A stretch of 26,289 nt of DNA from Candidatus Heimdallarchaeota archaeon (GTDB taxonomy: Archaea > Asgardarchaeota > Wukongarchaeia > Wukongarchaeales > JBHIFL01), in the NCBI GenBank assembly GCA_046761065.1, contig JBHIFL010000058.1, positions 1 to 26,289 of the forward strand, written 5' to 3'. The position numbers were made by a program, and so were the translations under genes. The first letter of the stretch is position 1. Each line of letters opens with the position of its first letter. Positions 1 through 24,368 of this stretch are shown here, in pieces. The notes beneath the pieces are model-generated. The model was not told where the DNA came from, did not search any database, and saw nothing but the letters and a program-made list of their open reading frames with translations.

Positions 1-23
1 CTTGATGGTCGAATTGAAATTGA

Positions 24-1310
24 TTAGCTAGGATATGGCTTGGGCAACAAGCTATCCAGGATTTGTGGGTGTTACGGACTCGAATTCGGAAGACGAAGAG
101 GGAACTGGGGAAGCGGAAAGCCCAAGGAGAAGTGTTGTCGGAGGAGGAAGAATTAGCATTAGCGGATTATGGGACGCATGATCTCACTATTGAAGCGATC
201 CAGAACCGCCTATGCGACTTGTATGGGAGCCCGTTGCTGCGGGTGTTCTTTGTCCGAAGGACGACAGTAAGCGTTGAAGACCTCTTGGGCTAGCATGTGA
301 TTTTGGATTTGAGTGAGTTAAGGCATCAAGGGATCCGGAATGACCTGTAACGGTTGTTTTGCGAATTTATCTTGTTATATCAAAGTCATGGAGTGACACT
401 GCGCCAATAGGGGCGGATTAGAAGACGAAACGTTGTGGTTATTGAAGAGGCGCAGCAGCTCGTGCCCGAAGTGTTAGCGAAGCGGACCCTTGTCAATGGC
501 ACAATGCCAGAAGAACTTATCGGAACATTAGGAGGTTATGGGTTAACGCTTATGTTCATCTCCGCACAACCAGGGCTACTATCCCGCGCGATCATAGCAG
601 GGTGTCATACCAAAGTAGTATTTAGCTTATAGGGCAGGGAAGCGGCGTTATTAGCGGACATGCTGGGTGTGGAGGCGGCAGAAGTAGCGGGATTACAGAC
701 GGGAGAGTGCCTTGTCCGAGCGGCGGGGACCGGGGTGTGTAAGATGTGGGCTTGGACGTAGCGATCATATCCAGAAACGGCGGTAGCTCGATTAGAGAGC
801 AGGCAATAGGAGTTTCCGCACGAGGTTTCGAAGAGGGCGCGGGCGGTGTATAAATTCTTGGGGGAGCAGCCCCTTGAGTATTACAGCACCTTGGTTGAGT
901 TTATTGAGGAAGTGAGGAAGGAGGGAGATAAACAAACAGAAGACGAGGAAGGAGGAGAACAAGAAAGAAAAGAAGAGATGCTTGGCTGTTGGGCGGAGGC
1001 TGAATGTGGGTTGTGTGCCAAAGATGGGCGATTGGTGAAGGATGGGGTGAAATATGCTGAGAAGTATTGGGAGAAGACGCGAAAGGACGAGCTACTAACG
1101 AAACACAAAATCTATTCCCGTAATCCCACTATTTTGTACGATGATCTGTTACAACTGGTCCAGAAGGAGGGAGCACCCAATGCGGAGCTGGTGGCCTTCT
1201 GCGCGTGTTGGATGCTCTTTGAGTGGAGTGTAACCAATGCTACGCTGAGTAAGTGTGGCAGGGATGTGTTCAAGTTAGGGTGCGAGCAGTTAGTCGCTCG
1301 GTTAGTTTGA
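24..1310 (+). pseudogene. Degraded HerA/DUF87 (FtsK-HerA superfamily) ATPase gene, C-terminal half of the ATPase plus a downstream CxxC-containing region; the 5' part lies outside the window
   Basis: Track ORFs 63-293, 435-632 and 846-1310 share one frame. Reading through the stops gives VEDLLG*HVILDLS, Walker B VVVIEEAQQL, GYGLTLMFISAQPGLLSRAIIAGCHTKVVFSL* and AGLQTGECLV, the usual HerA-type motif series. In-frame stops: TAG 291, TAA 348, TAG 408, TAG 630, TAG 759, TAG 807, TGA 1308. Confidence 0.8.
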
Positions 1311-1393
1311 GAGCCTGAGCTGTCTCGGGTGTTGGATCGTAGGGGCCGTTCACGGCGGCCCCAGCATTTAAGCCATGGGATGCGTTTTGTGAC

Positions 1394-2440
1394 TTGTGCC
1401 CGATGGAACGGGGGTTGCGGGATATGTTCTGTGGGAACTATCGTGAGAAGGCGAATGTGCAGCTGGAAGATGCGGCCTTGTGGCAGCGGTTGACTGTGGC
1501 GTATCGCAGCTCCTTTCGCCAGTTTCTGAAGGCGTGTTTAGAGTCCGTATTGGCCGGGACCAGTTCCAAAGTCAGTTACTATTATTGCCTCGCGACAACG
1601 TTCCTGAAGGGGGCGCTGATGAGCAAGACGCAGCAGTTTCTGGCGGAGGTCGCAGCCCAGGAAAAACCCCTAGAGGAACAAACGACAGAAGAAAAAGACG
1701 ACCTACCTGAGAACAAGGAAGGGGAAAATGATGTTCCTAGTTCTAGTGATGATCCGTCTACTGAACTGAAACAGGCCATCGAAACCATCTTTGCTCAATA
1801 CAATGGCATCGTTTCGCGGGGAACGCTTAAACAGCAACTCCACGCTCTGGCTGGGTGGAATTCGCCAAAAACGTTTTATTCGCTCATAGAGCATGTTATC
1901 GCGAAAAAAGTTTCTGTTGCCATTCAGAAACGGGAGCGGAATCCCCGCCAAGTGAGAGCGCAAACCTACTACGTGTCTCCTGCCTATCACAAGATAGATA
2001 CTATCCTTGATTTCTTCCGTGTGATTCACAATTTCATCATGGGTGAAATCAAAAACTTTCTCAGCGTCACTTGTGCGGTCAAAGACAGAACCAGACTCAC
2101 AAAAACCGGAAACACAATAATCAATGACCTAGAAGTGAGGTTTAGTTCACGGAGAACATATGTGGAATATACGAGTGGTGGACGGGAGAAGATGCACGAC
2201 CAGCTTAAAAAGATCAGGGATAACCAGAATTATGAAGCTGTATTTGTAGTCAGACTTGAAGATCCGCCTCGACGCCGCCAAAGCTCTAGAAACAACCCAA
2301 TTGGTATCCGATCCAATAAGAAGGTAGCCTTAGAAATTGCCGACGAATTAGGCATAAAGGTCTACGTCTTCACCCTGACAAATGTAACCATGCTGGAATA
2401 TTATTGTATGCATGGAAAGATGCCCTATACCCAGCGGTGA
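1394..2440 (+). CDS. Hypothetical protein, probably the distal part of the same gene beyond a frameshift near 1340. It has a CxxC, an acidic linker, a possible winged helix and a possible PD-(D/E)xK nuclease-like C-terminus.
   Basis: 348-aa ORF with the frame open from 1343 (GPFTAAPAFKPWDAFCDLCP), no obvious RBS or clean start, and the motif INDLEVRFSSRRTYVEYTSG. The nuclease call is tentative. Confidence 0.55.
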   Translation: MCPMERGLRDMFCGNYREKANVQLEDAALWQRLTVAYRSSFRQFLKACLESVLAGTSSKVSYYYCLATTFLKGALMSKTQQFLAEVAAQEKPLEEQTTEEKDDLPENKEGENDVPSSSDDPSTELKQAIETIFAQYNGIVSRGTLKQQLHALAGWNSPKTFYSLIEHVIAKKVSVAIQKRERNPRQVRAQTYYVSPAYHKIDTILDFFRVIHNFIMGEIKNFLSVTCAVKDRTRLTKTGNTIINDLEVRFSSRRTYVEYTSGGREKMHDQLKKIRDNQNYEAVFVVRLEDPPRRRQSSRNNPIGIRSNKKVALEIADELGIKVYVFTLTNVTMLEYYCMHGKMPYTQR

Positions 2441-6712: not shown

Positions 6713-7714
6713 TTAAAAGTCCCAAAGGGGGGAGTCATTAGGTAGTGTTGTCACTTCCACTCCATCTGCTGTGATTAAGATGGTATGCTCAGATTGGGCC
6801 ACCATTGCGTCCTTCGCCTCTGAAAGGACATGATATTTCCGCAGCGCACCCTGCGATTGGAGTTCTCGCAAGGCGAATTTTGTTTCAGCCGAATTGAATT
6901 CGCGACGCAGAGCCCGTTCGGAGAAGGGTAATTGTTTATATTCCCGGGCAATATGGGCAAGAACTTTCCGGGTTGCTTTGCTTCGAGCCCTCACCCGGAT
7001 TGGTAAGAGGGAAAAGATGAAACATTTGTTATGGTCTTCATGCACAGTTCCTACCCCAGTTGTTGCAAAAATATCAAGTCCATAAGCTTCCCCTTCTTCA
7101 AAAGCTTTACCATGGGGAAGCGTAATATTAGGAATGATTTTCGGGCCGTGCAAGTCATATTGATCAATTAAATGGCCTGAAAGATCGCGAATAGGCCGGT
7201 ATCCATAGTTTTTGATAGTTTCTTCGATGATTCGTCCTATTTCATTTGTCTTTACACCAGGTTTTATCGTCTCTATCGAATGCTTCAAAGCTTGATTAAC
7301 AGCTTCGACGAGTGGAGTGAGGGTCTCATCTAAGGTAACTGTAAAAGCGGTATCGGCTACATATCCATCTTTATGAGTACCAACATCAATCTTAACTATG
7401 GCTTTTTCTCCAATAGTTCCTTCATCATTTGGTGGGGACGTATAGTGTGCGGCTAAATTATCTATACTGATATTAAACGGAAAAGAAATCCCGAAGCCTT
7501 GTTGTAGGATGTAGTCTTCAGTTTTTTCACAGATATCCAACAATCTTGCACCAGGTTTTATCATATCTCTTGCTTTTACTAGTGCCTGATGCGCAACTAT
7601 CCCAGCGTGTCGATATTTTTCCTCTTTTGTTCCTTCCTCTTCTTCCTCTTCTTGTTCCTGTTTGTCTTCTTCTATTACATGGTCTTCAGCCAAGTGCGAT
7701 CCCCCCATCAGCAA
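6713..7714 (-). CDS. map: Methionine aminopeptidase type II (archaeal/eukaryotic type), with an acidic N-terminal extension
   Basis: AAHYT, KIDVGTHKDGYVADTAFT, GHLI..Y.LH, the type II helical insert (REYKQLPFSER) and AQSEHT. An alternative start is TTG 7693. Confidence 0.9.
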   Translation of the reverse strand: MLMGGSHLAEDHVIEEDKQEQEEEEEEGTKEEKYRHAGIVAHQALVKARDMIKPGARLLDICEKTEDYILQQGFGISFPFNISIDNLAAHYTSPPNDEGTIGEKAIVKIDVGTHKDGYVADTAFTVTLDETLTPLVEAVNQALKHSIETIKPGVKTNEIGRIIEETIKNYGYRPIRDLSGHLIDQYDLHGPKIIPNITLPHGKAFEEGEAYGLDIFATTGVGTVHEDHNKCFIFSLLPIRVRARSKATRKVLAHIAREYKQLPFSERALRREFNSAETKFALRELQSQGALRKYHVLSEAKDAMVAQSEHTILITADGVEVTTLPNDSPLWDF

Positions 7715-11019: not shown

Positions 11020-13287
11020 ATGCAAAAAAGAATACAAAGATTAATTGACCGATTAGATTCCCTCTTAAAAAAAGGGAAAATAGATCAGAGAACATATGAC
11101 CAGATGCGAGAAGCTTTTGAAACAAAACTGAGAGAATTGAAAGAGAGCCCAAGAAATGAAAAAGGATGGAATGAAAAAAAAGAACAATACATTGCTACGA
11201 CCCCATCTCATAGCTATATCGTTTCAGAGTTAGAGGACATTAATGTTGAATTAGATGGAAACCGACCACCAAGATCTTTAATTTCCTATTTACAAGCAAA
11301 GATTGCCTATCGTGATCTTCTAGATAAAAAGAAAACACTTATTGAGCAAGAAGCTGAAATAAGAGAGAAATATCAAAAGAATCAAATCTCTAAAAAGGAT
11401 TTTTTGAGAGAAACCTCAACACTATCTGAAAGGGTAGCTAAACTTTCAGAATCTATTGAAACGAAAAGAGCGACCTTACTTGAATCAAGAGGGCGAACTT
11501 TTAAATTAAATGAAGAGCTTGATTTTCTAAAGAAAAAAATGGATGCGTTAGAAAAAGCTTTAGCCCTTGAAAAAATTGATAATGAAGCATATTTAACTAT
11601 GAAACAAGATATCACAAGTAAAAAAATAAAAATCCGGCAAGAAATTCAATCGGATGTCAAAAGATTTTCTAGATGGGTTGCTTTTTTTGAGCAGGAATTA
11701 CAACACCGACAAACCCAATTGAAACAAATTCAATCCGATGAACCATTCGAAGTCACTGAAAGAAAGCAACAGAAGATCAACGAATTGCTCAAATTTATCG
11801 AGCTTCTCCACACAGATATTTCAATGTTTTCCTCAGAAATCACAAGAATTCCTGTAGTAGAGGATGGAAGAGAAAGTGATGAGAAAATAAGCCAAAAAAT
11901 CCCAACAGAACGTCCCATTGAAGAAGAAAAGAAAATTGGTATACAAGTTGAAGATACAAAGACTGCTTGGCAATGTGTGGGGAACATGGTCCAATCAACT
12001 GCAAGAGACCTGATTGGTATTTGTTCACGACCCTTAGTAAGGGAAAATCAGCTCTATCTTGAAATAGTAAAAATAAATGAAATCCAAGATAATATTATTG
12101 AGGAGATTTATAACCTCATAAAACATTCTCTCGCTATAAGTGGTATCACTAACCTTACCAAGCGGAGGGCAATCATTGCTGATTATATTAGTAAAACAAC
12201 TGGAGTTGAGAAGACAAAGGCCTTGAGTCCAACAGTCGTGGGGGAATTCTATAGGAGTATGAGGATCTCCATTCCTGAAGGCCTAGATCAGGGGGAAATA
12301 AAGCCAATTGGGTGCGTTCCCTTTTCAGCCATTCAGGAACTAAATAAAAAATGCATAATTATTAAGGAAAAGTCAATAGAACCTCCTATCCCTGAGGGAC
12401 AATTAGCATTTGTTGAAGAGAAATTCTCCCCTTCTGAGTGTATTGGATCTATAATTCGGGATAGTATGGGCCGTGTGCGGGGACAAATTATTGAAATGCT
12501 TTCCCATCCTATTTTCGGCCAGATCATGCTAATAATCTCCAAGGGACCACGTCCCGAATTACTTGAATGGATTCTAAGTCAAACAAATCAAGTGAAATCC
12601 AAAGTACTCACCCAGGAGGAAAAAACTTGGCTAACTCAATTTCTTGTAGCTAAAAGACTTGAAATTGTTGAACCCGAATCGCTCAACCCTGACAACCTGA
12701 TTTCCTATTGTCTAGTCGAAGGAATCCCTCTTCTACCAAATGAAATAAGGATTAGCTATCTATCTTGGATTTCAGCAGGATTTCTTCGACGAAGGGGGAC
12801 AGAATTTACTATTAGAGGAAGTGACACAACACTAAAACCCTTCCCTGAAGGGCTTTATGAGGTTGAATATAAACCGATTATAACTGGAAATGCTAATAAA
12901 TTAGGATACGCGATTGGGTTCGATCACACCAAAGGAGAGGTGAAAATAGTTTATGCTAGTCACTTTTCTGAGAATTTAATCCCTCTGATTTATGGGTCTG
13001 TTGTTGATAAAGAAAATATCAAGAATGTTTTTACTAAAATGAAGCAAGAGATATGCGAAAAGTTGAACATTCCAATAAAGAAAGGGCTTATGCCAAGCAG
13101 TGTACTGAGATATTTAATCAAGGAAAAATTGAAGAGCATTAAGAAGCTTACAGCAATTCGCCCTAAATTTAAAAAAATGAAAGATCATTTAAAAATGAAC
13201 ACACTCGCTTTGAAAGATGTCGAGATTAAAGAAAACGAGATTATTCTGAAGGAAACAGGAAATAACCAAATACTGAACGAGATTTGA
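11020..13287 (+). CDS. Large hypothetical protein: N-terminal coiled coil with three SHOCT/CdvA-like motifs, then three PRC-barrel-like repeats with helical inserts
   Basis: 755 aa from ATG 11020 after AGGAG. The N-terminal half is K/E-rich. Internal repeats begin near 11965, 12430 and 12856. The gene is secure; the domain calls are inferred. Confidence 0.75.
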   Translation: MQKRIQRLIDRLDSLLKKGKIDQRTYDQMREAFETKLRELKESPRNEKGWNEKKEQYIATTPSHSYIVSELEDINVELDGNRPPRSLISYLQAKIAYRDLLDKKKTLIEQEAEIREKYQKNQISKKDFLRETSTLSERVAKLSESIETKRATLLESRGRTFKLNEELDFLKKKMDALEKALALEKIDNEAYLTMKQDITSKKIKIRQEIQSDVKRFSRWVAFFEQELQHRQTQLKQIQSDEPFEVTERKQQKINELLKFIELLHTDISMFSSEITRIPVVEDGRESDEKISQKIPTERPIEEEKKIGIQVEDTKTAWQCVGNMVQSTARDLIGICSRPLVRENQLYLEIVKINEIQDNIIEEIYNLIKHSLAISGITNLTKRRAIIADYISKTTGVEKTKALSPTVVGEFYRSMRISIPEGLDQGEIKPIGCVPFSAIQELNKKCIIIKEKSIEPPIPEGQLAFVEEKFSPSECIGSIIRDSMGRVRGQIIEMLSHPIFGQIMLIISKGPRPELLEWILSQTNQVKSKVLTQEEKTWLTQFLVAKRLEIVEPESLNPDNLISYCLVEGIPLLPNEIRISYLSWISAGFLRRRGTEFTIRGSDTTLKPFPEGLYEVEYKPIITGNANKLGYAIGFDHTKGEVKIVYASHFSENLIPLIYGSVVDKENIKNVFTKMKQEICEKLNIPIKKGLMPSSVLRYLIKEKLKSIKKLTAIRPKFKKMKDHLKMNTLALKDVEIKENEIILKETGNNQILNEI

Positions 13288-13957: not shown

Positions 13958-14272
13958 TTGGTGTTTTTTTTGCGAGGAAATGAAAAGAAACTTTTGATAG
14001 ACGTCTTGGTAAAACCTAGATCGAAAGTGATAAACATTAGCTTCGACCCCTTTAAAAAAGGGCTTATAGTTGCATTAAAAAGTCCTCCAACAAAAGGAAA
14101 AGCAAATAAAGAGCTATTAGACATACTAAAAGGGTATTTACAAGAGTTAGGATATCGAAAGGTTCGTCTCACAATTGTTCGCGGGCATACAAGCAGAAAT
14201 AAGATAATATCGATTTCTGATATTAATCCAGTCGACCTACTGGAAAAGCTTAAAACATTGTCACTTGGTTAA
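13958..14272 (+). CDS. DUF167/UPF0235 (YggU-like) protein
   Basis: VLVKPRSK, LKSPPTKGKANKELL and IVRGHTSRNKII signatures. Confidence 0.9.
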   Translation: MVFFLRGNEKKLLIDVLVKPRSKVINISFDPFKKGLIVALKSPPTKGKANKELLDILKGYLQELGYRKVRLTIVRGHTSRNKIISISDINPVDLLEKLKTLSLG

Positions 14273-19513: not shown

Positions 19514-20944
19514 TCACATCATGCCTTTTCCAAGGCGCTTTGCCGTGTAATATTCCTTGATCACAATGGGTAGATAATCATCAGGACCTACATTAACCAC
19601 ATCTACCTCGAACCGCTTTAGCGCCCGCTCCACTTTCCTCCGCACCCCAAGGTACTCTTCTGCTATCGCCTCCGCTAGTGCTTTCTCCACCGGAGAAAGT
19701 TCCTCGATTCTTGCCTCAAAGAACGGACCAAACGGCGCGACCACTGTTACTGGGTTCTTCGTCGTCCGCGCCTTTCTAATCGCATCGATGATTCGTTCTG
19801 CACGCGCGCCTTCAAGATCTGTTAAGAAAACATAAAATGCTGGCCGTGGTTCTCGACGAATAATATAGTTCACGGCCTTCAGGGGATTTGCCATACCCCC
19901 TGGTTCGACCAAAGCTAAATTCTCTAAAATATCAAAGAATGTTCTCTTTCCTGCGCCGGGTGTGATGTACTGATGCACTTTGTCACTGTAAATGGCCATT
20001 CCAACAAGATCTTTCCGTTCCAAGGCCATATGAGCTAAGAGCATAGCTGCACGAATTGAAAAATCTAATTTGGTGTTATTAGGAATACCCGCTCCCATGC
20101 TTCCTGAACAATCTAAAAAGATCATGACCCGGATGTTTCGCTCAATCTCAAATTCCCGGACAATCAACTTCTGCGTTCGTGCGAACGCCTTCCAGTCGAT
20201 GCGTCTGAACTCATCACCTGGCATGTAAGGTCTTAAAGCATGGAATCGATCCCCAAGTCCGATCTGGCGGGTTTTATGGACCCCAAACAACATGCCAATT
20301 TGACGGCGGTGGGCAAGGGCATCCATCCGCTTTATATCTGTATATTCAGGAAGAACGAGAATGGTGGTTGCGTCACCGACAATTTCCTCTTCGAAATAAA
20401 AGCCCATTCGATCGTAGATGATAATACGTGTAGGTCCAATAGTAAATTTGCCCCGTTGGGTGGTTCGGAGGATATAGGAGAAGGATATTGTCTGTCCAGG
20501 ATCTATTCGAGTGGTGATGTAGTTTTCACCAACTGAGAGTTGAAGGGCTTCACTTATGGGATCATAAATCTCAAGAAAATCAATCCTTGTTCGGGAAGTG
20601 TTGGTGACATGAAGTGAAACATGGCAATACTCCCCCATGAACACCTTTTCTTTGTCTAATGTGCGTTCTATTTTAATCGCACCTCCGATCGCACTGAATC
20701 TGAAAGCCGGAAGTCCAACAACTACAGCGAGAATGCAAATGACGCCCATAAAGAGGCAAAAATCTTCAAAAGTAGGAGGCAGCACCATCTCTTGGGGGGG
20801 CGTTCCCGCTTCCCCGCCTCCAAATGCGCCACGTAAGAGTTGTATATACTTAATTAGGCCCCTTATGCCTTCGAATGAGAGCCCTATTGCAATTAAGAGG
20901 ACACCGGCTACAAGCACAAAAGCCCCTCGGGGCGACATACCCAT
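19514..20944 (-). CDS. DUF58 / VWA domain protein with two N-terminal TM helices
   Basis: FHALRPYMPGDEFRRIDWKAFAR...LIVREFE, MIDAS-like FLDCSGSM and FLTDL. Confidence 0.93.
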   Translation of the reverse strand: MGMSPRGAFVLVAGVLLIAIGLSFEGIRGLIKYIQLLRGAFGGGEAGTPPQEMVLPPTFEDFCLFMGVICILAVVVGLPAFRFSAIGGAIKIERTLDKEKVFMGEYCHVSLHVTNTSRTRIDFLEIYDPISEALQLSVGENYITTRIDPGQTISFSYILRTTQRGKFTIGPTRIIIYDRMGFYFEEEIVGDATTILVLPEYTDIKRMDALAHRRQIGMLFGVHKTRQIGLGDRFHALRPYMPGDEFRRIDWKAFARTQKLIVREFEIERNIRVMIFLDCSGSMGAGIPNNTKLDFSIRAAMLLAHMALERKDLVGMAIYSDKVHQYITPGAGKRTFFDILENLALVEPGGMANPLKAVNYIIRREPRPAFYVFLTDLEGARAERIIDAIRKARTTKNPVTVVAPFGPFFEARIEELSPVEKALAEAIAEEYLGVRRKVERALKRFEVDVVNVGPDDYLPIVIKEYYTAKRLGKGMM

Positions 20945-21010
20945 AAGAAGTCACACCTCACTTCATTTCACTTCACGTGGCTAAATCTAACGTGATTATT
21001 GATTTTAAGG

Positions 21011-22006
21011 TTAAACTGGGCATGGAATCTCATCAATAATGTCTTTGACTATCTTTTCTTGAGTGATCCCCTCAAGTTCAGCCTCTGGTTTCAAGATTAG
21101 TCGGTGTTGAAGAACTGACGTCAGCATATATTTTATGTCATCTGGGATGACATAATCCCGGCCATGGATAGCGGCTCTTGCTTTTGAAGTGATAAGGAGA
21201 CCAATGGAGGCTCTAGGCGATCCTCCGAGTAATATTCGCGGGTCATTCCGTGTCCTGAACACAATATCTCGAATATATGATTGGAGATCTTTATCTATGT
21301 GAATCCGTTGAACAATATCTTGAGCTGCTACAATTGTCCTAGGGGAAGTGACGGCGCGTGCCTTGTGGTACTTTGGCGCATGTTTTAGATCGATGATCTC
21401 TAGTTCTTCTTTTTCAGTAGGATACTTTACAATTGTTTTCAGCAAAAATCGGTCTATTTGGGCTTCGGGGAGTGGATAAGTGCCTTCTTGTTCTATAGGG
21501 TTTGCTGTCGAAATGACAATGAATGGCTTTGGCATTGAATAAGTTGTCCCCTCAATTGTCGCTTGTTTCTCTTGCATTGATTCAAGTAGAGCGCTTTGGG
21601 TTTTAGGTGGTGCCCTATTGATCTCATCAGCCAAGATTACATTTGCGAAGATTGGTCCTTTTTTGAGCTGGAAACTTCCTTTTGTAGGATCAAAGATATT
21701 TGTTCCATAGATATCAGCTGGAAGCAAGTCGGGAGTGAATTGGATTCGGCTGAACTCACTGCCTAGACACTGAGCGAAAGTGTTAGCTAAGAACGTTTTA
21801 CCCAATCCAGGCACGCCTTCGAGGTACACATGACCTTCGCACAAGAGAGCGAGAAACATTTGTTCAATCGTTTGTAGCATTCCCACGACTGTTTTCCCTA
21901 CTTCTTCTCTAATTTGTTTCCAGAGGCGGCCCACATCTGCTACATCTAATGTTTTGTCCAATGTTGGTACTGTTTCACGTTCTTCGAGTTTTTCAGTTTC
22001 CGTCAT
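21011..22006 (-). CDS. moxR: MoxR family AAA+ ATPase
   Basis: GVPGLGKT, RIQFTPDLLPADI.G, LADEINRAPPKTQSALLESMQE, NPIEQEGTYPLPEAQIDRF and GGSPRA. Confidence 0.97.
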   Translation of the reverse strand: MTETEKLEERETVPTLDKTLDVADVGRLWKQIREEVGKTVVGMLQTIEQMFLALLCEGHVYLEGVPGLGKTFLANTFAQCLGSEFSRIQFTPDLLPADIYGTNIFDPTKGSFQLKKGPIFANVILADEINRAPPKTQSALLESMQEKQATIEGTTYSMPKPFIVISTANPIEQEGTYPLPEAQIDRFLLKTIVKYPTEKEELEIIDLKHAPKYHKARAVTSPRTIVAAQDIVQRIHIDKDLQSYIRDIVFRTRNDPRILLGGSPRASIGLLITSKARAAIHGRDYVIPDDIKYMLTSVLQHRLILKPEAELEGITQEKIVKDIIDEIPCPV

Positions 22007-22195
22007 ATTAAACCCTCTAACTCGATTAATTCTTCAGATCTATAATACACCTGATAGGAGGGATTTCAGTCCCAATACTTTGCGTTTGGCCCTCCACTAA
22101 TTTTAGACCATCTTGAATGAATATATGTGCCTCCCTCTCAAATGAAATTTTTTCTCGACTCCAATGTTTCTGAGCCCTGAATTTGGGATCCAAGC

Positions 22196-23839
22196 TTATG
22201 TCGCCTCCTCACCTACAAGTTTATCAGTTATTGACTTCAAGAAATAGAAATACTTCAAAAATTGCTCCTCATTCATTCCTCTTCCCTTGAAAGCCGTTTG
22301 AATCTGTTTAAACCGTTTGATCAACTCATCCGGATCTATTGTTGGAATTAAAGAGGTTATAGCACGAGCTATAGGTTCGGGTTCTGTTTCAGCAATCTTT
22401 GTCTTTTCATGGACAATCCTGCTTAATCTCCGGTACAGTAGATGTAAAGCTTGCCCATATTGCTCGTATTCTGTATACCATCGCATTTTAACTGCAAAAA
22501 AGCTTCGCCCATAGTATCGTTCAATTTTTGATAAAAGACGAGCTGATACTGGAGTTCTTTTAGGCATGAACCGGCGAGTAATCATGAGAACAAAGATAGG
22601 GAAAAATGGAGCGGTGAAAGGAAACATGGTCATAAGGGCAATAAAGCGCATGGATTCTCCTGTGTACATGATCGGGCTGCGGGGGGAATTTTCCAAGTGG
22701 CCTTCATCAAAAAAGAAGACGGGACGATCGCCGTATCCTTTGGCGGCCCATTCGATGAGCCCTTCTGCAAGGTCTCGATTTTGTGTATTAAGCGCTTTAG
22801 GATCAGTTATGCTGTATTCAGGATTCGTAGGATCAAGATATTTATTGATAAAAATAGAAGGATCTGCACAAAGGAAGAGTTTGGATTGGGGACCGAACTG
22901 CATTCCAGTAGCTACACAAAAACCTGTCGCATACTCAACATCCTCAAAGGTGTAATTACCATAATCTCCCGCATTCAGGGTCACATCAATCGATAATGAG
23001 AGACCCCCAGCCCACTCTTCTCCGGGATTCCAAAGGTAATGTCCTTGTTCTGCGGCTTTGACAGAAGTTTCGAGCCAAGCGTAGTGAGTACTTGTTTCCA
23101 ACCAACCGAGTAGACCTGGAAAGGGCATCCACCACGTCTCATTTGTATCAGTAGCTCTTACTTGCATTGAAAGAATGGTGGAGAAATCAGCAATAATGTT
23201 GTCAACTCGGCGACCAAGAGCTCCTGACAGTAATTGCGCGTACTTATTCTGGTGAAGTATTGGGCGCGTAGGTGACAAGGAATAGTCCGAAGTTTCAATC
23301 AGAACAGACTGATTGAACCCGATCCCAGCAAATGCAATATCACGTATTTCTCCCTCCCGTTCAACAGATAGGGTGAAATTTTCTCCAATTCCACCAACAC
23401 CAATCAAAGAACCGGCAGCTCGGATCAGGGTATTTAATCCTCTTAAGAGATCATTCCCCGTCCCAAAATCATCGGCGATGATAATAGTACCTCCTCGCAT
23501 GAGGAACAGGACAAGGGCAGCCGCTTCAGAGATGTCATAATGGACAGCAGGACCCATGATGACAAGAATCCCCGACTCATTTTCTTCAAGGCGGTTGACT
23601 GCATTAATCGAAGAGACGATGGTCTTTACAGCATCTACATAGCCATCCCCGTCGCTATCTGTTGGAAACTTACTTTCAACTATTGTTCGAAATTCACTTA
23701 AGCCATTCCAGTCCTCATTATAGATGCTGAACGGCGTTTCAGTTACCGATCCTAATGGAGTAGAAAACAGAGTAAAGGGAAGGACTATAGCAACAAATAA
23801 GACGATTAGCAAAGTAGTTCCTTTTCCTATACCTGCCAT
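22196..23839 (-). CDS. DUF4350 domain membrane-anchored protein
   Basis: N-terminal TM/signal, FSIYNEDWNGLSEF, GGTIIIADDFGTGNDLL, ADPSIFIN and FFDEGH, a second TM, and a cytoplasmic helical tail. ATG 23839 follows AGGAGGAG. Confidence 0.88.
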   Translation of the reverse strand: MAGIGKGTTLLIVLFVAIVLPFTLFSTPLGSVTETPFSIYNEDWNGLSEFRTIVESKFPTDSDGDGYVDAVKTIVSSINAVNRLEENESGILVIMGPAVHYDISEAAALVLFLMRGGTIIIADDFGTGNDLLRGLNTLIRAAGSLIGVGGIGENFTLSVEREGEIRDIAFAGIGFNQSVLIETSDYSLSPTRPILHQNKYAQLLSGALGRRVDNIIADFSTILSMQVRATDTNETWWMPFPGLLGWLETSTHYAWLETSVKAAEQGHYLWNPGEEWAGGLSLSIDVTLNAGDYGNYTFEDVEYATGFCVATGMQFGPQSKLFLCADPSIFINKYLDPTNPEYSITDPKALNTQNRDLAEGLIEWAAKGYGDRPVFFFDEGHLENSPRSPIMYTGESMRFIALMTMFPFTAPFFPIFVLMITRRFMPKRTPVSARLLSKIERYYGRSFFAVKMRWYTEYEQYGQALHLLYRRLSRIVHEKTKIAETEPEPIARAITSLIPTIDPDELIKRFKQIQTAFKGRGMNEEQFLKYFYFLKSITDKLVGEEAT

Positions 23840-23879
23840 CCTGCTCCTCCTTTGAATCAATGTTCAAGAGATCTTTTTT

Positions 23880-24368
23880 CTATCGGTCAGAAGCACGCAT
23901 GGAATCCGTAAGAGCCTTTTCTCCAGAGACTTTCATAATTTCTACGAGTGATTTGTAAGCTTTCTCAAATTCTTCACTAGTTACTTCGCTTCTACCATAT
24001 CTAGCATGTTCGAACCCATGTAACAAGTCTAATAGTGCTCGACCCAGTGGAGATCGGGGGGCAATTCCCGCTTGTTGGGTAAACATCGCAAAATACTCTC
24101 GGGGAGATTGTGAAACTTTTCGAGGAGCTCGATAGGATCGAGCAGCATGCATGGAGAAGGCCCTCCATGCCTCTATCAATCCCTCTCTGTACTTACGTGC
24201 AGTTCCCAATTCCCGAATCTGCAACATCTTTTCTTCAATGTCTCGGGTAGATATCGTGATTGGCTCTTCCGGTCTGGGCCGTAAGTGTAATCTTATGCGA
24301 AAATAATAAATAACTACACCGATGAGAATCGCTGCAATACCCGACACAATGAGGATTGTATCAACCAT
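23880..24368 (-). CDS. DUF4129 domain protein with an N-terminal TM anchor
   Basis: SQSPREY...FEHARYG...VTSEEF signature; hydrophobic residues about 5-23. Confidence 0.85.
   Translation of the reverse strand: MVDTILIVSGIAAILIGVVIYYFRIRLHLRPRPEEPITISTRDIEEKMLQIRELGTARKYREGLIEAWRAFSMHAARSYRAPRKVSQSPREYFAMFTQQAGIAPRSPLGRALLDLLHGFEHARYGRSEVTSEEFEKAYKSLVEIMKVSGEKALTDSMRASDR

Follow-up and report, generated by a model that had tools for sequence, protein, structure and literature searches.

What kind of protein is encoded by the long unannotated gene that lies beside profilin in an Asgard archaeal genome, and with which cellular system would it work? The question was raised by a stretch of 26,289 nucleotides from a Candidatus Heimdallarchaeota archaeon (positions 1 to 26,289 of contig JBHIFL010000058.1, assembly GCA_046761065.1), the whole of which is called the window here. 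The product of the gene, P0001, had been read in a preliminary description of the window as a permuted CdvA-like scaffold of division or membrane remodelling, with three split PRC-barrel repeats. Comparison of profiles and of predicted structures indicated that the repeats are homologous PRC barrels, each carrying a helical insert, and in the branch of the family that holds this window the protein may be a scaffold linked to profilin and actin, a reading that we prefer tentatively.

The gene is a single open reading frame on the + strand that can be opened at a TTG (10996) or an ATG (11020) and stops at 13287. Eight orthologues with 47-84% identity all start at the ATG position, with the sequence MQ[EK]RIQRL, so the product of the gene is taken to be 755 amino acids (aa) long. 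No hydrophobic stretch of P0001 resembles a transmembrane helix (top KD19 value 1.28), and the protein has no Pfam match above threshold, no NCBIfam match and no PDB sequence match. All 12 motifs quoted in the preliminary description were found again (residues 12, 114, 177, 319, 474, 615, 390, 543, 678, 433, 584 and 729). Its statement that the family is undescribed also held for Pfam, NCBIfam, the PDB and the literature searched, in which there was no description of a triple split PRC-barrel architecture. P0001 is a real, conserved and unannotated Asgard-archaeal protein.

Three PRC barrels split by a helical insert

Residues 308-755 were modelled with AlphaFold2 from an alignment of 38 sequences, which gave a predicted local distance difference test score (pLDDT) of 89.5 and a predicted template-modelling score (pTM) of 0.85. 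In the model three strands are followed by three to four helices and then by two to three strands, a pattern that occurs three times, and P0001 ends directly behind the last barrel strand. The best-conserved motif of the family, W.LRF.IAK.L...EGEAL.P.NLW.....E.IPILP.E...SY, sits in repeat 2. Self-BLAST of P0001 left the repeats undetected, and hhalign on a shallow alignment of eight sequences detected them weakly (E 0.06-0.11). With the 38-sequence alignment, repeats 1 and 2 matched each other at E 6.8e-9 over 120 columns, repeats 1 and 3 at E 1e-8 over 116 columns, and repeats 2 and 3 at E 2.3e-9; column-reversed controls for these comparisons gave E 0.1-0.45. The helical inserts compared alone by hhalign matched at E 1e-8 to 3e-7. 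Because the repeats are homologous across barrel and insert, the unit that was triplicated must already have carried the insert.

The top Foldseek matches in the PDB were CdpB1/CdpB2 of A. fulgidus (8qzo, E 5.6e-4), followed by PRC1/PRC2 (8onw), RimM, MTH1859 and reaction-centre H subunits, and a structure search independent of Foldseek, run on 48,161 PDB representatives, returned PRC-barrel proteins as 11 of its 12 top chains. By VIA, repeat 1 was matched by RimM 2f1l (Z 9.1, root-mean-square deviation (rmsd) 2.2, 66 residues aligned, model 7..148), by CdpB 8qzo_B (Z 7.1) and by CdvA 9s9g_B (Z 6.3). Repeat 2 was matched by RimM 3a1p (Z 7.8, model 160..299), MTH1859 (Z 7.4) and A. fulgidus PRC1/2 (Z 6.7), and repeat 3 by the PRC domains of reaction-centre H subunits (Z 5.8-6.2, model 240/267..447). 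These Z values are moderate, and the rmsd of the best matches ranged from 2.2 to 4.6 over the three repeats. Each of the alignments spans about 140 model residues and aligns about 66 of them, so the insert is skipped.

Kinship with PRC barrels was also seen between profiles. With its insert removed, repeat 2 matched an alignment of 16 canonical Asgard PRC proteins by hhalign at 90.2% probability (E 1.5e-6, 59 columns) over both barrel halves, and the matches of repeats 1 and 3 were weaker (E 3e-3 and 1e-3; reversed controls 0.2-0.56). The insert occupies the position of a variable loop of 10-20 residues in canonical archaeal PRC proteins, between strands beta3 and beta4. By fold, and by profile-profile similarity over both barrel halves, the module belongs to the PRC-barrel superfamily. 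P0001 gave no match at E <= 1 to the Pfam model of the PRC barrel (PF05239, cut-off 21.2 bits), which was matched by one of 36 family members (E 0.0089), and hmmsearch of the family profiles against PDB sequences, 8qzo and 8onw included, gave no PRC match at E <= 10; the matches that it returned were at chance level (acyl carrier protein, E 0.23; CHIP, E 0.14). For the inserts no convincing structural match was found, the best being the SleB N-domain (Z 4.0) and a lambda-repressor-like protein (Z 3.9).

Together these comparisons establish that the three repeats are homologous PRC barrels and that the insert-bearing unit predates its triplication. The preliminary description had proposed three PRC-like repeats, each split by a conserved helical insert, and fold and profile comparison agree with it (hhalign E 2e-9 to 1e-8 between repeats; PRC barrels by AlphaFold and Foldseek). 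P0001 very probably consists of a helical half that would oligomerise it, followed by a PRC-barrel module in which the insert-bearing unit is triplicated, and it is probably a soluble, self-associating scaffold of the PRC-barrel superfamily. The superfamily thereby gains a new architecture, with a helical domain in the beta3-beta4 loop that is triplicated in one chain.

In a search of the ESM Atlas, the nearest clusters were a 323-aa protein from Bathyarchaeota and a 285-aa protein from Thermoproteota (0.90 and 0.89), candidates that may be non-Asgard kin of the insert-bearing unit; otherwise PRC clusters appeared at low template-modelling (TM) values only.

Distribution of the family and its gene neighbours

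When 1.84 billion cluster representatives were searched exhaustively with the profile, only 37 clusters proved to have the module. Most of them match only the last ~440 residues of P0001, and P0013, P0025, P0031, P0034 and P0044 match over the full length. The conserved unit is therefore the C-terminal module, which is 415-480 residues long and stands behind N-terminal regions of 45-615 residues. The module was present in 77 of the 301 Asgard genomes sampled, belonging to nine of 30 families (numbered here f1, f2 and so on), and within these nine it is near-universal and mostly single-copy (28/29 genomes in f4, 20/21 in f21, 11/11 in f27, 6/7 in f19 and 5/5 in f17). It was absent from the sampled genomes of f6 (0/76), f9 (0/68) and f12 (0/19). 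The named records with the module are all from Asgard metagenome-assembled genomes (Hodarchaeota, Hodarchaeales, Hodarchaeum mangrovi, Heimdallarchaeota and Promethearchaeota), and all are annotated as hypothetical proteins. Some Asgard lineages that seemed to have no PF05239 proteins do carry PRC barrels.

Neighbourhoods were compared by tblastn on 23 related loci. The profilin gene next to the scaffold gene in the window is the single profilin match in this genome, which is 91% complete. Profilin is the immediate neighbour of the scaffold gene in f1, f2, f4, f10 and f27, the two genes being convergent in f1, f10 and f27, divergent in f4 and in tandem in f2. An entire block of arginase, scaffold gene, profilin, DUF167, DNA ligase and GIFT protein is kept in f1 and f4, and in f27 and f10 only the pair of scaffold and profilin genes is left, among unrelated subtilase, ThiN, thioredoxin, HEAT-repeat and NUDIX genes. 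In a maximum-likelihood tree of the module, a quick one with a midpoint root and some long branches, all profilin-linked proteins fell into one group (SH-aLRT, the Shimodaira-Hasegawa-like approximate likelihood ratio test, 89), and the linkage therefore probably had a single origin. The adjacency to profilin that the preliminary description had pointed out is thus conserved in part: it holds in five families that form one clade, and it is missing in the Hodarchaeum-type family and in three others.

Two other genes recur near the scaffold gene. DUF167 adjoins it, or lies one gene away, in f1, f4, f21, f29 and at locus L006; in f21 (Hodarchaeum-type), f29 and L006 it follows on the same strand, overlapping or within about 60 nt. 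In f21, f29 and L006 the MetAP gene is the next gene upstream of the scaffold gene, which stands between MetAP and DUF167 with all three on one strand; in f17 and f19 MetAP is no more than 3 kb away. Since MetAP and DUF167 flank the gene in the former and MetAP is near it in the latter, these two are its oldest neighbours, and profilin joined later, in one branch of the family. No clue to the function of DUF167/YggU came from a search of the literature.

Shorter paralogues were seen at some loci. On contig C21 of genome G000 (locus L008, 95-2853) a 303-aa paralogue matches profile positions 193-423 of the split-PRC module (E 1.2e-16), about its last 1.5 repeats, and is flanked by a multi-pass membrane protein of 435 aa and a small GTPase of the Ras family (PF00071, 4e-34); the three genes are on one strand with gaps of 6-7 nt, in an operon-like arrangement. 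A second paralogue in f27, about 536 aa long, has the coiled coil and repeats 2-3 only (L040, 6987-8603; L041, 6461-8050) and adjoins a Maf-like gene and a TRAP-beta-like protein.

Profilin and actin, and other candidate partners

Asgard archaea possess actin, profilin and gelsolin. To our knowledge, no native Asgard partner that recruits profilin-actin has been identified, nor any archaeal equivalent of formins or VASP. A conserved single-copy scaffold beside the sole profilin gene, with LPPPPP tracts in one family, fits this gap and is a concrete candidate. The PRC barrels of CdvA, CdpB1/2 and RimM appear to serve as protein-docking or polymerising domains, and for this reason the triple module is read as a docking platform: it would bind partners, and the helical half would serve to oligomerise it. 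In the window's branch of the family the likeliest partner system would be profilin and actin, and we suggest, with some reserve, that P0001 is a scaffold linked to it. The linkage to profilin appears to have arisen once and to have survived in five families through three orientations and the loss of all other neighbours, and in f27 the linker directly ahead of the module bears tracts that may be likened to FH1.

Runs of at least four prolines occur only in f27 orthologues, in a disordered linker directly ahead of the module. The scaffold gene of genome G231 (L039, 6771-9929) encodes five L/T-L-P5-6 motifs, and holds five of the roughly 12 Pro5-coding sites of that genome in a rough count that ignores reading frame. 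The scaffold of G291 has the polyproline tract LLPPPPPPPPLP, and further tract carriers in f27 are P0011, P0016 and P0017 and the proteins at loci L045 and L010. The number of LPPPPP(P) tracts in f27 runs from 0 to 6 and varies even within one genus, G237 having none. Eukaryotic actin-assembly factors such as the formins bear polyproline profilin-docking tracts immediately ahead of a conserved C-terminal domain. The f27 proteins likewise pass from a dimerising helical region through LPPPPP to a conserved C-terminal module, and their gene lies beside profilin. The likeness to formin FH1-FH2 and to Ena/VASP is a functional analogy only: the family has no homology to FH2, WH2 or EVH1 and no FH2 match in Pfam, and the window's protein is without polyproline. 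In vitro, profilin of Heimdall LC3 binds a VASP polyproline peptide, and no native ligand was named in that work (PMC8410842). Since P0001 has no polyproline tract, any contact with profilin or actin must use the barrel module or the helices. A more specific proposal would make the protein an Asgard-specific factor of actin assembly or anchoring, a coiled-coil oligomer whose triple PRC module binds actin or profilin-actin and whose LPPPPP tracts feed profilin-actin in one lineage. This seems unlikely; if true, the family would do with PRC barrels what formins or Ena/VASP do in eukaryotes, as a functional analogue, and would be the first native archaeal profilin ligand.

Several points weigh against a link to profilin and actin. 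The proposed function is drawn from gene order and domain analogy, and structural Z values of up to 9.1 demonstrate no more than a shared fold. The scaffold and profilin genes are never clearly co-transcribed, and in the window they are convergent. As the linkage is a single evolutionary event, it amounts to one observation plus its retention, and in f1 and f4 the retention of the block could be plain inherited synteny. Four families, the Hodarchaeum-type f21 among them, have the scaffold with no profilin nearby, profilin in f21 lying more than 1 Mb off. The proline tracts are found in only some f27 genomes, and runs of at least four prolines are missing from the window's P0001 and from all members of f1, f4 and f21.

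Alternatively, P0001 could be a generic oligomeric scaffold of PRC barrels with a partner unrelated to actin, in which case the adjacency to profilin would be inherited gene order and the functional neighbour, if there is one, would be DUF167. This is a real alternative that we consider rather unlikely. It would account for the single origin of the linkage, for the mixed block that f1 and f4 share (arginase, profilin, DUF167, DNA ligase and GIFT protein), for the opposite strands of scaffold and profilin in the window, for the same-strand position of DUF167 close behind the gene in f21, f29 and L006, and for the four families that have no profilin linkage; however, the adjacency has outlasted every other gene of the block in f27 and f10 and has survived three changes of orientation, and the f27 orthologues have gained LPPPPP tracts that resemble profilin ligands. 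A role in translation, in which the PRC barrels would dock on a ribosomal protein in the manner of bacterial RimM, is improbable. RimM PRC domains (2f1l, 3a1p, 2dyi) are protein-docking domains and gave the highest structural Z (9.1 and 7.8), MetAP is a direct or close neighbour in the five groups named above, archaeal PRC genes often lie near translation genes, and the window carries an LSM gene upstream. Against this, the gaps in Z between PRC matches are about 1-2 and do not discriminate, and RimM is a bacterial protein with one barrel behind an N-terminal domain, which binds ribosomal protein S19, whereas P0001 has no such N-terminal domain and no match to RimM at the sequence level. The MetAP gene of the window is on the opposite strand, 3.3 kb off, and the absence of the family from most Asgard families would be odd for a core ribosome factor.

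The other two alternatives place P0001 in cell division or membrane remodelling. One of them, which we regard as quite unlikely, is an adaptor of an FtsZ/SepF division ring resembling CdpB, in which the fused barrels would replace the separate CdpB1, CdpB2 and CdpB3 and the coiled coil would polymerise. Haloarchaea require PRC-barrel proteins in order to divide (bioRxiv 10.1101/2023.03.28.534520), and the CdpB proteins (A. fulgidus 8qzo and 8onw; Haloferax CdpB1-3) are archaeal cytoplasmic PRC barrels that include the best Foldseek matches in the PDB (E 5.6e-4; VIA Z 7.1), several barrels co-operating in both cases, as a heterodimer or polymer in CdpB and as three fused copies in P0001. The genome has genes for FtsZ and SepF and no PF05239 protein above the cut-off, and the triple protein and PF05239 proteins alternate in f4 (28/29 against 0/29) and f6 (0/76 against 64/76). 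This complementarity is only partial, however. Both kinds are present in f27 (11/11 and 11/11) and in f19, and both are all but missing from f9 (0/68 and 5/68). The genome also encodes a divergent PRC protein with an uninterrupted barrel, just under the PF05239 cut-off (19.1 bits against 21.2). The argument that the triple protein replaces canonical PRC proteins is therefore weak. Neither ftsZ nor sepF was a neighbour at any locus examined, and RimM outscores CdpB by VIA. CdpB proteins are single uninterrupted barrels of about 80-170 aa that pass PF05239, whereas P0001, with 755 aa, has three barrels in one chain, helical inserts of about 75 aa, a helical N-terminal half of about 300 aa and no Pfam match, and it is not a small single-domain orthologue of CdpB1, CdpB2 or CdpB3. 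The other alternative, the permuted CdvA of the preliminary description, which would recruit ESCRT-III to membranes, is very improbable. CdvA of the Thermoproteota (arCOG04054; PF18822 with an N-terminal PRC barrel; 9s9g) is a cytoskeleton-type adaptor with the same building blocks, a PRC barrel and a helical or coiled-coil region. Its structure matches one barrel at Z 6.3; it also aligns with the full-length model over 124 columns (rmsd 3.0), although E is 0.42, and PF18822 touches residues 11-44 (E 0.058). Yet PF18822 has a cut-off of 30 bits and reaches 13.8 bits here, and when the whole genome was scanned with this model, other loci were matched and the gene was missed. CdvA places its PRC barrel at the N-terminus and the coiled coil behind it, and in P0001 this order is reversed, with the helices first and three insert-bearing barrels at the C-terminus. 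No C-terminal tail like E3B was recognised (no E3B peptide model was compared), and RimM and CdpB score above CdvA structurally. Neither the open reading frames of the window, nor the annotated f27 and f10 neighbourhoods, nor the related loci examined yielded a Snf7 or Vps4 domain, and there is no cdvB/cdvC neighbourhood. Kinship with CdvA was thus not borne out, and the likeness lies in the building blocks that the two proteins share.

The helical half and other features of the window

The full-length AlphaFold model, made from eight sequences, was poor (pLDDT 62) and was used for the helices only, which it places at residues 85-119, 125-156, 159-182, 188-235 and 243-275 of P0001. A motif L..L...G.I....Y opens most full-length family members at the N-terminus, and this SHOCT-like motif is present in duplicate in P0008 and P0009. 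Similarity of the N-terminus to SHOCT, as expected from the preliminary description, held to the extent that the N-terminal half is helical and has a SHOCT-like motif; scores for PF09851 stayed below its cut-off of 27 bits (P0001 16.4 bits, P0008 17.5 bits), so this is a resemblance only and not membership of the domain family. Of the three N-terminal motifs that had been grouped together, motifs 1 and 3 are alike (hhalign E 2.5e-4) and motif 2 is unlike them (E 0.11). In the first linker R82, P83 and R85 of P0001 are invariant across the close family. The features of the scaffold gene and its neighbours are given in Table 1.

Table 1. Positions in the window of the scaffold gene, the parts of its product and three neighbouring genes
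Feature	Position	Strand	Remarks
MetAP (M24) gene	6713..7714	-	PF00557; old neighbour of the family
Scaffold gene P0001 (whole, stop included)	11020..13287	+	single open reading frame; 755 aa, cytoplasmic
SHOCT-like helix-turn-helix motif, residues 9-31	11044..11112	+	PF09851 E 0.0074, 16.4 bits, below cut-off 27
Linker 1, low confidence, residues 42-84	11143..11271	+	pLDDT 28-40; RPxR invariant
Helical / coiled-coil region, residues 85-275	11272..11844	+	five long helices, pLDDT 74-91
Second SHOCT-like motif, residues 177-194	11548-11601	+	inside the helical region
Linker 2, acidic, disordered, residues 276-311	11845..11952	+	pLDDT 29-32; net charge -3; 3 prolines only
Repeat 1, split PRC-barrel, residues 312-462	11953..12405	+	insert ~353-426 = 12076-12297
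Repeat 2, split PRC-barrel, residues 463-608	12406..12843	+	insert ~507-579 = 12538-12756
Repeat 3, split PRC-barrel, residues 609-755	12844..13284	+	insert ~647-725 = 12958-13194
Profilin gene, 118 aa	13428..13784	-	PF00235 30.2 bits, cut-off 25; convergent with scaffold gene, 140-nt gap
DUF167/YggU gene	13958..14272	+	PF02594 8e-16, TIGR00251; most widely conserved neighbour of the family

Some minor observations were made on the genome and the window. On contig C24 of genome G000 (locus L048, 1501-2157) there is a 218-aa protein with an uninterrupted PRC barrel, a linker rich in Pro, Ser and Thr, and C-terminal CxxC zinc ribbons, which is the only canonical-type PRC candidate of the genome. 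The first 2,000 positions of the window (1-2000) have a GC content of 0.51 and GC skews of +0.32 and +0.17, and the remainder has values of about 0.40 and about 0. At 19514-24368 the minus strand carries a MoxR (AAA_3) gene together with DUF58/VWA, DUF4350 and DUF4129 genes.

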